Part shown: piece after piece, positions 15,118 through 47,610 of the stretch | Numbering within the stretch: position 1 is the stretch's first letter | Layout: the number at the start of each line of letters is the position of its first letter | NCBI GenBank assembly: GCA_022448365.1 | Contig: JAKVCS010000004.1 | Coordinates: 544,458 to 608,457 of the forward strand | Length of the DNA: 64,000 nucleotides | Reading direction: 5' to 3' | From: Saccharospirillaceae bacterium | GTDB taxonomy: Bacteria > Pseudomonadota > Gammaproteobacteria > Pseudomonadales > Oceanobacteraceae | The notes under the pieces: generated by a model | What the model saw: only the letters and a program-made list of their open reading frames with translations | Database searches by the model: none | What the model was told of the DNA's origin: nothing | Program-made: the position numbers and the translations under genes

Positions 15118-15220
15118 TTGTACATTGACGTTGTACATCTCTGTATAAGAAAAATTTAGCGGTATCAGGTTGTATCTGTCAAAGGTTTTGTACAAGAAAA
15201 GTGTAAAGTTGTATAAGAAA
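15118..15220 (-). promoter_or_regulatory. Sigma70-like promoter of the ybgA-merR-phrB operon with clustered TnnACA operator repeats
   Basis: Minus strand has TTGACA (15177-15182), an 18-bp spacer and TAAATT (15153-15158). TTTCTTRTACA occurs three times (plus-strand TGTA at 15142, 15189, 15210), with further TGTACA at 15119 and 15132. Confidence 0.65.
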
Positions 15221-15248
15221 TGGTTGTGGCTGCGAAAGATACGGATAT

Positions 15249-15286
15249 AAAAAAGCTGCACAGCCGAAGAGGGTGGCTGTGCAGCT
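15249..15286 (-). terminator. Rho-independent terminator after the small CbiX gene
   Basis: 12-bp stem AGCTGCACAGCC/GGCTGTGCAGCT followed by a U-run on the minus strand. Confidence 0.85.
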
Positions 15287-15328: not shown

Positions 15329-15712
15329 TTAGCTTAGCTGGCGTATAACAACCTGACTGATTGCGCTGGCAACTTCAGGTTCCAGACCAATTGGTGTGTG
15401 CAGATCAAGTTCACAAGAGAATCCCTGTTGCTGCAGCTTGTGTTTGACGGCATCCAGCATTTCCGGCACGTCTTTGCGCAGGTGGCGCCCTGCAGCAAAG
15501 AATAGTGGCAGAATATCGATGTGCTGATGGCCGGACTTAACTAAGTCGATCACGGCGTCTTCCAGCATCGGCTCGGCCAGCTCCATGTAAGCCAGCTGCA
15601 GCGGTGTACCGGCAGGCAATTGCTGAGCAATACTGTGTGTCAGCTGGTCAAAAGGCTCGAGCCAATGAGGGTCGGAGCTGCCATGGGCGAGCAATACAGT
15701 TGCTTTTTTCAC
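15329..15712 (-). CDS. Small single-domain CbiX/SirB-type sirohydrochlorin chelatase
   Basis: VLLAHGSSDP, LAYMELAEP and ILPLFFAAGRHLRKDVP, with both catalytic His residues present; 127 aa. Confidence 0.88.
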   Translation of the reverse strand: MKKATVLLAHGSSDPHWLEPFDQLTHSIAQQLPAGTPLQLAYMELAEPMLEDAVIDLVKSGHQHIDILPLFFAAGRHLRKDVPEMLDAVKHKLQQQGFSCELDLHTPIGLEPEVASAISQVVIRQLS

Positions 15713-15727
15713 CTGAGAATTCCCCGG

Positions 15728-16720
15728 TCAGTTATTGATAAATTGCAGCGCGGCCTTCTGGCCACTGAGCCAGGCGCCTTCAACAGCCCCCCGATCAACC
15801 CAGTCTCCACAAACGGCCAGCTGCTGTTGCTCGTCAACCAGTGCGCCCTTGTGCAGTGGCTGTTCAGCGATTGCGTAAAGCCAGCGGTGCAGCCAGCTCT
15901 CTGTCGGGGTGATGACATCACTTTGCATTACCTCGAAAAAGGCATCCAGCATTTGTTGTTGTATACCATCACGCGGGGCTTCCGAGTGAGTACGCGTCCA
16001 ATCATGATCAGCATGCACCACCCAGGTGGTCAGGTTCTGATCCCGCTCAGGCTTACTGGAATTCTGTGAAACCCAATCGATAATCGGATGTTTCACAAAC
16101 GCCCCTTTGATGTCGTTTGCCGTGGCGTTACTGAGGCGTTGATCGAATGCCAACAGCAAGGTAAATGTCGGCATCAGGTCAACATCGCATTGCGCTGCCA
16201 GCTCAGGTGCAATGTCCTGCAGCAGTGGCTGCGCCTGCAGTGGTGGGGTATTGATAATCAAACCATCGAAGCCATCGAACTGATTACCTATGTCGTCTTC
16301 GAGGTGCCAGCTCTGGTCGCTCCGGCGGCATTGCAATATGCGTGTACTGGCGTGGAACTGATCGGCGCACGCCAGCAGTTTGCGGCTGAGTGCAGTCATG
16401 CGACTGACACCGACGTAACGCTCAACATCATCCGGGGATTCGTGAATGCCCTCGTCATTGATGACATGCGGCTGGAAATCCCAGTGCTGAATCCATCCTT
16501 CCTGTTGCCATTGAAGCAGCGCTTGTTTAAATCCCTCATCGTGGCTGCGCATGAACTGAGCGCCCATGTCCCAACTGGCATCACCCACTTTTTTAGTGGC
16601 CAGGCGACCACCAGAACCACGGCTCTTGTCAAATATTGTGACTTGATGACCGTGTTCTTTCAGTCGCTGCAGAGCGCTGAGACCCGCCATACCAGCACCT
16701 ACAATCGCAATGTGTGCCAT
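15728..16720 (-). CDS. Renalase-like NAD(P)/FAD-dependent oxidoreductase (COG3380)
   Basis: IAIVGAGMAGL, FDKSRGSGGRLATK, WDMGAQF, HRWLYA and CGDW motifs; RBS AAGGA precedes ATG 16720. Confidence 0.92.
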   Translation of the reverse strand: MAHIAIVGAGMAGLSALQRLKEHGHQVTIFDKSRGSGGRLATKKVGDASWDMGAQFMRSHDEGFKQALLQWQQEGWIQHWDFQPHVINDEGIHESPDDVERYVGVSRMTALSRKLLACADQFHASTRILQCRRSDQSWHLEDDIGNQFDGFDGLIINTPPLQAQPLLQDIAPELAAQCDVDLMPTFTLLLAFDQRLSNATANDIKGAFVKHPIIDWVSQNSSKPERDQNLTTWVVHADHDWTRTHSEAPRDGIQQQMLDAFFEVMQSDVITPTESWLHRWLYAIAEQPLHKGALVDEQQQLAVCGDWVDRGAVEGAWLSGQKAALQFINN

Positions 16721-16739
16721 AGGATGAGATTCCTTAAAC

Positions 16740-16825
16740 TTGTACAACAAAATGTTAATTCTACATTGGCTGGCAAGTGTATCTTGATTTGTTGTATAGT
16801 CCAAATGTTGTATAACATTTGTATA
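16740..16825. promoter_or_regulatory. Divergent promoter region with TTGTAYA repeats and an inverted repeat
   Basis: TTGTACA at 16740; TTGTATA at 16792, 16808 and 16819 (last two 11 bp apart); AAATGTT-gtat-AACATTT at 16803-16820. Confidence 0.6.
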
Positions 16826-16862
16826 GTTAATGAAGCTCAATGCTGATGACGAGGATAAAAGC

Positions 16863-18632
16863 ATGACTTATAAGGCGCCCCTGCGCGATATGCAATTCGC
16901 ATTGTACGAAGTACTGAACGGTGATCAGGTACTGCCATCACTACCGGGTTTCGAAGATTCAACCCGTGAAATCATGGACGCTGTGCTCACCGAAGGTGCA
17001 AAGCTGGCTGAAAATGTGATGGCTCCGCTGAACATGCCGGGTGACCGTGAGGGTTGTCAGTACGATCCAGAAACCAAAGCCGTTACTACCCCGAAAGGTT
17101 TCCGTGAGGCTTATCAACAGTTCGCTGAAAACGGCTGGACGGCGCTTTCTTCACCAGTGGAATACGGCGGTCAGGGTTTACCTCACACGCTGAATACACT
17201 GGCGGAAGAGATGGTGTGCTCTGCTAACTTGTCACTGGGCATGTATCCGGGCCTGACTCACGGTGCAATCAACGCGCTGTTGAGCTACGGCTCTGATGAA
17301 CTGAAAAACAGATTCCTGCCAAAGCTGATCAGTGGCGAGTGGACCGGCACCATGTGTCTGACCGAGCCTCACTGCGGTACTGACCTGGGTCTGATCCGCA
17401 CCAAAGCTGAGCCTCAGGCTGATGGTTCTCACGCTATTTCTGGTACCAAGATCTGGATCACCGGTGGTGAACACGATCTGGCCGACAACATCGTCCACCT
17501 GGTGCTGGCAAAACTGCCGGATGCTCCGGGCGGTTCGAAAGGTATTTCACTGTTCCTGGTACCTAAGTTCCTGGAAGACGGTAGCCGTAACCCAGCGTTC
17601 TGTGGCGGTTTGGAACATAAAATGGGTATTAAAGGTTCAGCAACGTGTGTGATGAACTTCGAGCAAGCCAAAGGCTGGTTAATTGGTGAGCCACATAAAG
17701 GTTTGCAGGCAATGTTCGTGATGATGAACAGTGCTCGTCTGATGGTTGGTCTGCAGGGTCTGGGTATTGCCGAAGCTGCTTATCAGACGTCGCTGGAATT
17801 TGCTAAAGACCGCCGTCAGTCGCGTTCTCTGGCCGGTCCACAGGAACCCGATCAGGCTGCCGATTGCATCATTGTCCACCCGGATGTTCGGCGTATGTTG
17901 TTGCGTCAGAAAGTAACCATTGAAGGCGGTCGTGCAATGGCGTACTTCACTGCTATGCAGTTGGATGTGTCTCAGCACGGTGAAACGGCGGAAGATCGTG
18001 AACACGCAGACGATATGGTTCAGCTGTTAACGCCTGTAGTAAAAGCCTTCCTGACCGATGAGGGTTTCTTCTGCGCCAATGATGGCCTTCAGTTGATGGG
18101 TGGTAATGGCTTCACTCAGGACTGGCCGGTAGAGCAGTACGTACGTGACTCACGTATTACCCGTATTTACGAAGGTACTAACGGTATCCAGGCACTGGAT
18201 CTGGTAGGCCGTAAACTGGGTATGGCTGGCGGTCGTCCGCTGAAACGCTTCTTGGCGATGCTGGAAAGCTACTGTAAGGAGAACGAAGGCGCACCGCACA
18301 TTGGCGAAGTAAAAGCTGCCATGGCGAAACTGCAGAAAGCGACCATGTGGCTGATGCAGAACGGTATGACCGACCGCGAACAAGCGGGTTCTGCAGCAAC
18401 GCCATACCTGCGCTTGATGGCATTAACGTCGCTGGCGTATTTCTGGAGCCGTATGGCACTGACTGCGCGCGAGCAGCTCGACAATGGCACCACCGAGACT
18501 GATTTCTATCAGGCTAAACTGAACAGTGCTGAGTTCTACATGGCGAAAATTTTGCCACAGACCAGCGGGCTGATGAGCGAAATTGAATCGGGCAAAGACA
18601 GCCTGATGGCAATGACCATGGCCCAGTTCTGA
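16863..18632 (+). CDS. Acyl-CoA dehydrogenase (long ~590-aa class)
   Basis: MTYKAPLRDM, WTGTMCLTEPHCGTDLG, GTKIWITGGEHD, EHKMGIKGSATC and IYEGTNGIQALDL motifs; RBS GAGG. Confidence 0.95.
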   Translation: MTYKAPLRDMQFALYEVLNGDQVLPSLPGFEDSTREIMDAVLTEGAKLAENVMAPLNMPGDREGCQYDPETKAVTTPKGFREAYQQFAENGWTALSSPVEYGGQGLPHTLNTLAEEMVCSANLSLGMYPGLTHGAINALLSYGSDELKNRFLPKLISGEWTGTMCLTEPHCGTDLGLIRTKAEPQADGSHAISGTKIWITGGEHDLADNIVHLVLAKLPDAPGGSKGISLFLVPKFLEDGSRNPAFCGGLEHKMGIKGSATCVMNFEQAKGWLIGEPHKGLQAMFVMMNSARLMVGLQGLGIAEAAYQTSLEFAKDRRQSRSLAGPQEPDQAADCIIVHPDVRRMLLRQKVTIEGGRAMAYFTAMQLDVSQHGETAEDREHADDMVQLLTPVVKAFLTDEGFFCANDGLQLMGGNGFTQDWPVEQYVRDSRITRIYEGTNGIQALDLVGRKLGMAGGRPLKRFLAMLESYCKENEGAPHIGEVKAAMAKLQKATMWLMQNGMTDREQAGSAATPYLRLMALTSLAYFWSRMALTAREQLDNGTTETDFYQAKLNSAEFYMAKILPQTSGLMSEIESGKDSLMAMTMAQF

Positions 18633-18673: not shown

Positions 18674-19588
18674 ATGAGTAAAACAATTCTGATTACCGGA
18701 GGAACCGGCTTTATCGGCCAGCGTCTGGTGGATGACTGGGTCACTGAAGGTCATCATGTTGTTGTTTATAGTCGTCGCCCTGAGTGGGTGAAGCGGCGTT
18801 GGGGAGGTCGTGTTGATGCGGCCTCTTCACTGGCGACGCTGAACCAGCGCTTTGACTGGCTGGTCAATCTGGCCGGTGAAGGCATTGCTGATAAACGCTG
18901 GAGTGATAAGCGCAAACAGCAGCTGCGCCAGTCTCGTATCGATCTCTCCAGAGATCTGTTGCAATGGGCAAAGGACAGTCGCCAAGCCTTTGATCTTGTA
19001 TTGTCGGGTTCCGCCATCGGTTTTTATGGCTCTCACCTGGATGACGAACAGCAGGGAGCCGGGTATACCGAACAATCGGCTAATGGCGCCGGTTTTGCCT
19101 CGCAGCTGTGCCGGGACTGGGAGACAGTCGCCCATGAATTTGAAACTCTGTGCGAGCGCCTGGTTATTTTACGAACCGGTGTGGTATTGGGACAACACGG
19201 CGGCATGCTAGCTCGGCTGTGGTTGCCATTCAGCCTCGCCTTGGGCGGTGTTATTGGCAGTGGTCAGCAAGTTCTTTCCTGGATTCATCTCGACGATTAT
19301 CGTCGTGCCGTGCATTTTATCAGTAACAACGCTGTAGCGGGGCCGGTCAATATGACTTCGCCACAGGCAGTCACTAACCGCCAATTCACCAAAACACTCG
19401 GACGGGTTATGTCACGCCCAACGATTGCTCCGATGCCGGGTTTTGTTGCGGAGATGTTGTTTGGTGAGATGTCGGAGTTGTTGCTTGAAGGCCAGCGAGT
19501 GTTACCTCAACAATTACTCAGTCAGGGTTTTGTGTACGACTATGCTGACATTCACGACGCTTTGCGGGAAATTCATACTCATTGGTGA
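18674..19588 (+). CDS. TIGR01777-family NAD-dependent epimerase/oxidoreductase (YfcH-like)
   Basis: ILITGGTGFIG, VNLAGEGIADKRWS, SGSAIGFYG, LRTGVVLG and LSWIHLDD motifs. Confidence 0.93.
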   Translation: MSKTILITGGTGFIGQRLVDDWVTEGHHVVVYSRRPEWVKRRWGGRVDAASSLATLNQRFDWLVNLAGEGIADKRWSDKRKQQLRQSRIDLSRDLLQWAKDSRQAFDLVLSGSAIGFYGSHLDDEQQGAGYTEQSANGAGFASQLCRDWETVAHEFETLCERLVILRTGVVLGQHGGMLARLWLPFSLALGGVIGSGQQVLSWIHLDDYRRAVHFISNNAVAGPVNMTSPQAVTNRQFTKTLGRVMSRPTIAPMPGFVAEMLFGEMSELLLEGQRVLPQQLLSQGFVYDYADIHDALREIHTHW

Positions 19589-25447: not shown

Positions 25448-25486
25448 ATGTATAGGTAATGTATAGGTATTGGCTTTTTTAGTCCA
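25448..25486 (-). promoter_or_regulatory. Promoter of the cryptochrome/photolyase operon overlapped by a perfect 11-bp tandem repeat
   Basis: (ATGTATAGGTA)x2 at 25448-25469; minus strand has TGGACT (25481-25486), a 17-bp spacer and TACATT (25458-25463). Confidence 0.7.
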
Positions 25487-46413: not shown

Positions 46414-47610
46414 TTAACGGCGTTTACAGGTGGGGACTCTGTCTTGTTCTGCTTTAATCGCCTTCTCCTCATCAATAACGTGTTGTGGAAACTGACGCAT
46501 AAAACAACAGCAGATATTGTCATTAATCATCGTGCGTGGCCCATGTGGATGAGCAATGTGTTTGTAGGGAGCATGGTGGTGACCATGATCGTGTGAATGG
46601 TCGTGTGAATGATCGTGTGAATGATCGTGTGAATGGTCGTTTGAATGGTCGTTTGAATGGTCGTTTGAATGGTCGTTTGAATGGTCGTTTGAATGGTCGT
46701 GTGAATGGTCAGGTTGGAATTCTGCGTGGTGATGATGGACATCCACTTCACCTGCGGCCAAACGCCTTTCAAAGTCTTCCATCAGGGTTAGCTGTCCAGT
46801 GTGGTTTTGTGCCTGATGCTGAATCTCACTGATACGGGTAATGAAGGTATTCAGTACGTGAGACTGATCTCTCAGATAGTCAGCCTTAATAAACTGTACA
46901 TCCGGTTGCTGTTCGGCAACGCTATCGACATAAGCGTAAATCCGGTCGATCAGGCGTCCGCCAAACAGGAAGTAAGGCGCGACCACCACTTTCTTAAAAC
47001 CAAGCTTACACGCCATTTCGAGTCCACGTCCTACGCTGGGATAGGTGACCCCGGAATAAACCGTTTCCGACCACCCAAAGCCGAGATTTTCGCTGACCAT
47101 GCGGGTTAATTTAGCGGCTTCAGCGTTGGCCTCGGTGACCGAAGTTCCACGGCCGACAACAATCAGCATGGTGTCGTACAAACTACCGGCTTCCGGAATT
47201 TGATCGTAGCCGAGTGATTCAAGGATACGTTGCTGAAAGGCAAGAAGCATTTCATTGTGTAATCCCAGCTCACGGCCATATTCGATATTCAGGTTTGGGT
47301 ATTTCTGTTGGTAGGTAGTCAGTACAGAGGGAATATCATTTTTTGCATGCGTGGCTGCAAACAGCATTCCCGGGACAGCCAGAATATTTTCAACACCTTG
47401 TTCACGCAGACGATCCAGCGCCATATGAATATTGGGTGCAGAATATTCAAGGAAACCGTATTCGATTTTTAGCAGCGGGAAGCGCTGGCGTAATCCTTTA
47501 GCCAACAAGCTGAATTCTTCCTCGGCAATCTTTGCTCGACTGCCGTGACCACAGATAAGTACACCACTGCGTTCAGGTAATTGGCTTAATAGTTGATTGT
47601 AATCTTTCAT
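46414..47610 (-). CDS. cbiX: Two-domain sirohydrochlorin cobaltochelatase with His-rich tail
   Basis: ICGHGSR, GFLEYSAP, LFAATHAKNDIP, VVGRGTS and PYFLFGG motifs, then the (DHSH/DHSN) tail. Confidence 0.92.
   Translation of the reverse strand: MKDYNQLLSQLPERSGVLICGHGSRAKIAEEEFSLLAKGLRQRFPLLKIEYGFLEYSAPNIHMALDRLREQGVENILAVPGMLFAATHAKNDIPSVLTTYQQKYPNLNIEYGRELGLHNEMLLAFQQRILESLGYDQIPEAGSLYDTMLIVVGRGTSVTEANAEAAKLTRMVSENLGFGWSETVYSGVTYPSVGRGLEMACKLGFKKVVVAPYFLFGGRLIDRIYAYVDSVAEQQPDVQFIKADYLRDQSHVLNTFITRISEIQHQAQNHTGQLTLMEDFERRLAAGEVDVHHHHAEFQPDHSHDHSNDHSNDHSNDHSNDHSNDHSHDHSHDHSHDHSHDHGHHHAPYKHIAHPHGPRTMINDNICCCFMRQFPQHVIDEEKAIKAEQDRVPTCKRR
46585..46710. repeat. 12-bp tandem repeat, ~10.5 copies, inside cbiX
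   Basis: Units ATG(A/G)TCGT(G/T)TGA encoding DHSH (x5) and DHSN (x5) on the minus strand. Confidence 0.97.

Follow-up and report, generated by a model that had tools for sequence, protein, structure and literature searches.

A single-domain CbiX chelatase in a photolyase/LitR cluster is a predicted sirohaem ferrochelatase whose distribution complements that of the canonical CysG chelatase module

A small chelatase gene of the CbiX family is located within a photolyase/LitR-type light-stress cluster on contig JAKVCS010000004.1 of a Saccharospirillaceae bacterium (assembly GCA_022448365.1), of which a 64,000-nucleotide stretch, referred to here as the window, was analyzed. The gene, designated cbiXS (15329–15712, minus strand), has a GTG start, codes for a single-domain protein of 127 residues and matches the Pfam CbiX model with an E-value of 9.9e-21. 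It is the second gene of a two-gene operon, 15 bp downstream and on the same strand of a gene for a 330-residue renalase-type FAD oxidoreductase (15728–16720, minus strand). The evidence assembled below points, with a probability of roughly 0.6, to a homodimeric SirB-like sirohydrochlorin ferrochelatase that serves sirohaem synthesis and replaces the chelatase function of the N-terminal dehydrogenase/chelatase module of CysG (CysGB).

The product of the first gene aligns over its whole length (residues 3–328; E 5e-68) with the Pseudomonas renalase structures 3KKJ and 4ZCC, matches the Pfam models Amino_oxidase and NAD_binding_8, and shows ~40% identity to proteins annotated as renalase in Pseudomonas. 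The operon ends at a strong intrinsic terminator (15248–15286, minus strand) with a G+C-rich 12-bp stem, a 9-nt loop and a run of six U residues. The 101-nt region containing it folds at –38.6 kcal/mol (z –4.8), and none of 200 shuffled sequences folds as well; a consensus terminator scan did not report the hairpin because of its 9-nt loop, and it was revealed by folding. Downstream of cbiXS on the same strand are rudS, a MerR/LitR-type regulator gene, a photolyase gene, a desaturase gene and furan-fatty-acid-type genes. RudS is a tRNA 4-thiouridine desulfidase (PMC11417400). The promoter/operator region of the rudS-litR-phrB operon (15126–15247, minus strand) contains T(A/G)TACA hexamers at 15132, 15142, 15189 and 15210. 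A divergent promoter region (16721–16863), with hexamers at 16741, 16793, 16809 and 16820, separates the renalase gene from a rightward arm that opens with an acyl-CoA dehydrogenase gene (16830–18632, plus strand; Pfam domains N, M, 1 and C), which is kept at the same place in nine related loci. The arm ends with an NAD(P) oxidoreductase gene of the TIGR01777 (YfcH/SDR39U1/ThyD) family (18674–19588, plus strand; 324 bits against an NCBIfam cut-off of 207), which is present as a single copy in the genome.

Sequence and structure comparisons place the cbiXS product, referred to here as small CbiX, among the class II chelatases. It scores 74.5 bits against PF01903 (cut-off 22) over residues 10–119, and its best PDB sequence match is 3LYH (E 1.7e-20), followed by CfbA, Bacillus SirB and Archaeoglobus AfCbiXS. 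Residues His10, Glu44 and His77 align with His9, Glu42 and His75 of CfbA and are invariant across 23 orthologues; W17, F21, R76, R79 and D81 are also invariant and are subgroup-specific, R76, R79 and D81 within a distinctive AAGRHLRKDVP motif. An AlphaFold model made with the 23 orthologues has a predicted local distance difference test score (pLDDT) of 95.4 and forms a single alpha/beta domain with the class II chelatase fold. In Foldseek comparisons, template modelling (TM) scores range from 0.74 to 0.86 over the best structures, 3LYH, CfbA and AfCbiXS, with values of 0.81–0.86 for 3LYH and ~0.8 for CfbA. HemH and CbiK are only weak fold-level matches to the model (HemH E ~0.01), and the HemH ferrochelatase profile PF00762 has no match in small CbiX. 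The protein also falls below the cut-off of the CfbA equivalog NF033198 (60.5 bits against 120), its host is bacterial, and no methanogenesis genes are in view. Small CbiX is thus a class II chelatase, presumably a homodimer, whose metal ligands are intact. Its size and relatives suggest one symmetric active site for each homodimer, the same site as in CfbA and AfCbiXS being presumed because the His/Glu/His positions are shared.

The genome contains one other CbiX gene, a two-domain form of 398 residues (46414–47610, minus strand) with two PF01903 matches in one frame. This gene lies beside TP_methylases (corrin methyltransferases) in the same gene run as CbiC, and it likely encodes the cobaltochelatase of the cob operon. 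Also present are one hemH on another contig, one full-length CysG that includes the methyltransferase (SUMT) domain, and CysI-type and NirB-type genes for sulfite and nitrite reductase. An earlier note on this DNA had described a 127-residue chelatase with both catalytic histidines, 15 bp downstream of renalase, closed by its own terminator and separate from the full cbiX at 46414; the reading frame, the Pfam and structure matches, the hairpin and the gene coordinates bear out this description in every detail.

Comparison of CysG among 31 relatives separates genomes with and without cbiXS. CysG_dimeriser scores fall into two classes, and 25 CysG proteins were aligned, 14 from carriers of cbiXS and 11 from non-carriers. 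The equivalents of Salmonella R260 and R261 are missing from all 14 carrier proteins, and in 10 of these P106 is missing as well. Each of the 11 non-carrier proteins keeps R260, an arginine or lysine at 261, and D262, and nine keep both D104 and P106. The CysG of this genome has S260 and P261 in place of the two arginines and lacks P106 and K107, so that its DAPK loop reads D-Q-T-V. When R260 of Salmonella CysG is replaced by alanine (R260A), dehydrogenase activity is lost and chelatase activity drops ~100-fold; SirC, which only dehydrogenates and has no chelatase activity, does not have the DAPK loop (PMC7018833). One genome of the window's own family (G006) has a canonical CysG and the same cluster, with TIGR01777 divergent from renalase and rudS following, and its cbiXS slot is empty.

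A search of 401 genomes of the order, with orthologues defined by at least 40% identity, extends this pattern. Orthologues of cbiXS occur in the window's own family (f1) and in three others, namely f50, which resembles Halomonadaceae by sequence pattern, f24, which likewise resembles Marinobacter (12 of 12 genomes), and f22 (12 of 12); the Pseudomonadaceae-like family f26 has none in 12 genomes. In the order-wide sample, CysG_dimeriser is found in none of 12 f22 genomes, in one of 12 f24 genomes (a weak match) and in all 12 f26 genomes. A search of f22, f24 and f50 with the CysG of this genome matched only stand-alone SUMT genes. Its divergent CysGB module found no match in these families when used as the query, a result that shows little by itself, and the search was therefore repeated with Pfam models; NAD_binding_7 gave only weak TrkA-like matches in f22, f24 and f50, and none of the CysGB or SirC type. 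All five genomes tested from these three families have genes of the CysI and NirB types.

The orthologous serS-cysG locus shows successive forms of the gene. In this genome serS is followed by a full-length, altered CysG (L005:475-1851), in one f24 genus by a 453-residue form with only a vestigial dimeriser (L181:1183-2544), and in f24 and f22 by a SUMT-only gene (L172:1483-2343 and L184:1486-2241). CbiC was found in 3 of 19 own-family genomes; 14 of the 19 carry cbiXS, and CbiC was found in three of these. Most cbiXS carriers cannot make corrins. To judge from these alignments and profile searches, every lineage with a cbiXS orthologue lacks a canonical CysG dehydrogenase/chelatase module and non-carriers keep canonical CysG, such that the distribution of cbiXS appears to anticorrelate with canonical CysGB and not with hemH or with light genes.

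The promoter of the renalase-cbiXS operon carries sequences resembling the operator of Pseudomonas class II LitR regulators (PplR1/PmlR2), T(G/A)TACA-N12-TGTA(C/T)A (PMC9758184). There are 36 distinct T(A/G)TACA hexamers in the window. The 143 bp upstream of renalase contain four of them against 0.08 expected (Poisson 1.6e-6), two of which are 11 bp apart, and the rudS promoter region, which has a TTGACA-N18-TAAATT promoter, contains four against 0.11 expected (Poisson 6.5e-6). The hexamers upstream of renalase match the published operator half-site and recur in 10 related loci, including the 11-bp-phased pair, and those of the rudS promoter are likewise conserved. Searching for the exact operator spacing, T(A/G)TACA-N12-TGTA(C/T)A, gave a single match, which contained a mismatch and was no better than expected by chance. 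In both cluster promoters a hexamer comes immediately after a –35-like element, TTGACA-GATACAAC and TTGGAC-TATACAAC (minus strand, 15150-15185 and 16775-16805), which suggests the same repressor geometry at the two sites. As these hexamers are enriched, conserved and similar to the published operator, it is plausible that the renalase-cbiXS operon is light-controlled in the window's own family. Two further hexamers 11 bp apart lie before a cryptochrome operon in the window (25449–25470).

The earlier note had assigned cbiXS to a light regulon. The photolyase/LitR cluster and the upstream hexamers agree with this assignment for the window's own family, but it does not extend to f22 and f24, where no LitR hexamers were found upstream of cbiXS. 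In four f22 loci (L102-L105) cbiXS is preceded by a conserved sequence, GCACCTTCTTTTTCT ... TAGGATGGCTAAAAT, which bears no relation to the LitR hexamers and may be a promoter or the site of another regulator. In the corresponding Pseudomonas cluster, the 'ferrochelataase' gene is listed as 2.30-fold higher in light than in the dark in the P. mendocina RNA-seq table (PMC9758184). A sulfite reductase gene, PME_16680, is 4.4-fold light-induced in the same organism (PMC9758184, Table S1), which would be in keeping with a connection between light and the demand for sirohaem.

Comparison of gene order across families identifies TIGR01777, rather than the light genes, as the constant neighbor of cbiXS. 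Among 20 cbiXS-anchored loci, TIGR01777 adjoins the gene in all 12 with orthologues and in none of the eight with a more distant small CbiX. It also lies within ~3 kb in 10 of 12 renalase-anchored cbiXS loci, that is, wherever the upstream flank is present, and overall it is adjacent or near in 22 of 24 orthologue loci. The arrangements differ among families. In f50, TIGR01777 is divergent from cbiXS, which may be preceded by renalase and is followed by litR and phrB. In f24, cbiXS precedes TIGR01777 on one strand, the two forming one operon; no photolyase gene occurs within 10 kb, and the pair has a DUF924 gene divergent from it (L099:9116-9880). In f22, TIGR01777 is divergent from cbiXS, hemH is 2–3 kb away and there is no photolyase cluster; in one f22 genome the Wadjet defense gene JetA lies directly 3' of cbiXS (L102:10373-11779). 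Because TIGR01777 is adjacent in 12 of 12 loci and f22 and f24 have no upstream hexamers, the core association of cbiXS is with TIGR01777 and not with light. A general linkage of TIGR01777 to chelatase genes in Gammaproteobacteria was also considered and is ruled out, as 29 TIGR01777 loci sampled across the class include one with hemH beside the gene and none with cbiXS. Some gammaproteobacterial TIGR01777 domains occur in open frames of 476–505 residues (L147/G578, G665, G634, G574, G552), which suggests a fusion whose additional part might hint at the function of the family.

A renalase-anchored scan of 80 loci, with one genome per species, addresses the relation between cbiXS and hemH. In 12 of 13 Oceanospirillales-type loci, cbiXS directly follows renalase, and the rest of the order is the same wherever flanks are present: TIGR01777 and usually the acyl-CoA dehydrogenase gene on the opposite strand, then renalase, cbiXS, rudS, litR, and phrB onward. 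These loci include Bacterioplanoides, Bacterioplanes, Thalassolituus, Oceanobacter and a Saccharospirillaceae metagenome-assembled genome. The 67 Pseudomonas-type loci have no cbiXS. TIGR01777 precedes renalase on the opposite strand in 66 of them, the remaining locus being cut short; rudS follows renalase in 56; and hemH directly follows TIGR01777 on the opposite strand in 63, within the same photolyase/LitR cluster, as the earlier note had stated for Pseudomonas. Three of the records with this typical hemH-TIGR01777, renalase-rudS-litR-phrB arrangement are titled Gordonia sp., Janthinobacterium sp. and Leclercia tamurae (L063, L072, L089); their identities equal those of Pseudomonas loci, and the assemblies may be mislabelled or contaminated.

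The proposal in the earlier note that small cbiX is a non-homologous replacement of hemH is not supported by these data. The hemH slot is 3' of TIGR01777 on the divergent arm and the cbiXS slot is after renalase, and small CbiX and HemH have the class II chelatase fold in common, which makes them distant homologues. Strict exchange at one position is ruled out, since the slots differ and both genes occur in f1 and f22 genomes; this genome keeps hemH, and f22 has both genes near TIGR01777. The renalase-rudS gap of Pseudomonas shows no CbiX relic and no similarity to the gene. This gap of 170–500 bp (L028:10957-11408) contains a short open frame with a Trp-rich end, followed by LitR operators.

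Given the complementary pattern and the retention of sirohaem-dependent enzymes, the simplest reading is that CysGB has been displaced and is decaying and that small CbiX performs the ferrochelatase step. Small CbiX would insert Fe2+ into sirohydrochlorin to supply sirohaem to the sulfite and nitrite reductases, a predicted metal and substrate specificity, and would thereby take over the chelatase task of CysGB. The displaced module would then be free to change, as in the window's own family, with a predicted loss of chelatase activity in the CysG of this genome, or to be lost, as in f22, f24 and f50. Since the operon promoter carries hexamers of the kind bound by class II LitR, sirohaem chelation would probably be raised in light along with photolyase and RudS. 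Housekeeping sirohaem synthesis, which the earlier note had set against its own proposal, is close to the cross-genome pattern, with a probable light promoter added.

Several points weigh against this assignment, which for this protein and its orthologues is a prediction. The CysG of this genome is full-length and retains Asp106 (Salmonella D104) and Pro135 (P133); it may therefore still chelate, and small CbiX may be redundant here. Because the genomes that carry cbiXS are phylogenetically related, few independent events underlie the complementarity, which amounts to at least one contrast within the window's own family plus that of f22, f24 and f50 with the rest. A sole sirohaem chelatase behind a promoter that is repressed in the dark is awkward unless repression is leaky. 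Finally, the P. mendocina list of genes with more than 2-fold light induction includes neither the presumed renalase gene nor the presumed TIGR01777 gene (PMC9758184).

An alternative, which we consider unlikely, is that small CbiX is a light-induced accessory chelatase with a hemH-like role, metallating free photosensitising tetrapyrroles (sirohydrochlorin, uroporphyrin and other porphyrins), while CysG provides housekeeping sirohaem. The LitR-type hexamers, the full-length CysG and the 2.3-fold light induction of the Pseudomonas cluster hemH are all compatible with such a role, and small CbiX/CfbA enzymes do accept uroporphyrin III (PMC11568245). A similar removal of photosensitisers has been proposed for the two-domain cbiX of Rhodobacter capsulatus, which together with cysI is ~8-fold induced by singlet oxygen (PMC7074977). 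However, f22 and f24 keep the orthologue without a photolyase cluster or upstream hexamers, hemH is retained in this genome, and it is canonical CysGB, not hemH, with which cbiXS anticorrelates. The idea of porphyrin metallation, advanced in the earlier note, conflicts both with this distribution and with the archaeal small CbiX, AfCbiXS, which does not metallate copro- or protoporphyrin (PMC11568245). The part of the same idea that concerns sirohydrochlorin fares better: removal of this photosensitiser is a possible side benefit of a sirohaem chelatase, although here too the distribution of the gene tracks CysGB.

It is also conceivable, if rather improbable, that small CbiX and TIGR01777 act together on some other tetrapyrrole or metal task, or that small CbiX is a non-catalytic binding protein, in which case the complementarity with CysGB would reflect shared ancestry. 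The proximity of TIGR01777 in nearly all orthologue loci, its place in the same operon in f24, its pairing with hemH in Pseudomonas and the invariant, subgroup-specific R76, R79, D81, W17 and F21 could all be explained in this way. The intact metal ligands and the otherwise incomplete sirohaem route of f22, f24 and f50 argue for the chelatase role instead, and across the class TIGR01777 stands beside a chelatase gene in only one of the 29 loci. Least probable by far is a sirohydrochlorin cobaltochelatase feeding B12 synthesis, for example to replace cobalamin destroyed by light. The family name, the cobalamin biosynthesis annotation given by several sources and the presence of a cob operon in the window would suggest it, but that operon has its own two-domain CbiX and 11 of the 14 own-family carriers gave no CbiC match, and this role is largely refuted.

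The predicted sirohaem ferrochelatase can be compared with several known chelatases. SirB, the sirohydrochlorin ferrochelatase of Bacillus (5ZT7, 6JV6), has the class II fold (the small CbiX model superimposes on one SirB domain with a TM score of ~0.8), and small CbiX is proposed to share its reaction and its role beside a separate SUMT. SirB is a two-domain monomer of ~260 residues, whereas small CbiX is a single 127-residue domain that would pair with itself, and the two are ~25% identical. In size, fold and His/Glu/His positions, small CbiX resembles CbiXS of A. fulgidus and the methanogen CfbA (2DJ5, 1TJN, 6M25). Unlike these enzymes, which insert cobalt or nickel for B12 or F430, it is bacterial and unlinked to corrins, and it has Ser13 at the position of CfbA Arg12 together with the AAGRHLRKDVP motif. 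Its closest solved relative, 3LYH, is a 126-residue 'CbiX' from Marinobacter aquaeolei that was solved by structural genomics, has no assigned function and is probably orthologous to the f24 proteins; the f24 gene differs in that it shares an operon with TIGR01777 and has neither the photolyase cluster nor LitR hexamers.

Functional parallels are also found in proteins that are more distant in sequence. In Paracoccus and Rhodobacter, a CbiX-named gene (4CCS) supplies sirohaem where the CysG chelatase is missing, and Paracoccus has no obvious precorrin-2 dehydrogenase (PMC4063343). R. capsulatus cbiX offers a likeness in its link to light, being induced by photo-oxidative stress (PMC7074977). 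The 4CCS protein differs from small CbiX in having two domains with essential His127 and His187, and it was not among the sequence matches of small CbiX. The hemH of the Pseudomonas pplR1/pmlR1 cluster is similar in being a modestly light-induced class II chelatase gene beside TIGR01777 in a photolyase/LitR cluster; it differs as a housekeeping protoporphyrin ferrochelatase in another slot.

The constant neighbor of cbiXS raises a further idea, which is speculative and unlikely. SUMT, cbiXS and sirohaem enzymes are all encoded in genomes of the Marinobacter, Halomonas and f22 types, in which no precorrin-2 dehydrogenase is recognisable. As this step lacks a recognisable enzyme in f22, f24 and f50 and TIGR01777 lies next to cbiXS, TIGR01777 is a candidate for the missing NAD(P)-dependent precorrin-2 dehydrogenase of organisms without SirC, Met8p or CysGB, and the cbiXS-TIGR01777 pair might replace CysGB as a whole. 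The same dehydrogenase gap has been reported for plants and cyanobacteria. The TIGR01777 homologues of these organisms, GC1 and ThyD, act in plastids and thylakoids. Cyanobacterial ThyD is induced by high light and needed for growth under it, and on nitrate high light bleaches a thyD mutant (PMC11711299). Paracoccus shows the dehydrogenase gap as well, as Bali et al. pointed out (PMC4063343). Precorrin-2 oxidation can proceed non-enzymatically in air, and this may suffice (PMC7018833).

If small CbiX is a sirohaem ferrochelatase, a function could be assigned to the mini-CbiX proteins of bacteria, which are widespread but uncharacterised and include 3LYH, and small CbiX would be the first bacterial 'ancestral' homodimeric chelatase in sirohaem synthesis. 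The cobalamin biosynthesis annotations would then be corrected in genomes that are unable to make corrins. The forms of CysG described here may represent a decay series of its dehydrogenase/chelatase module after displacement, from canonical to altered to vestigial to methyltransferase only. The constant TIGR01777 neighbor provides a testable candidate for a step that has no known catalyst in many organisms. Finally, the LitR-type promoter linked to the gene raises the prospect that some marine bacteria couple their supply of sirohaem, and with it sulfur and nitrogen assimilation, to the light response.

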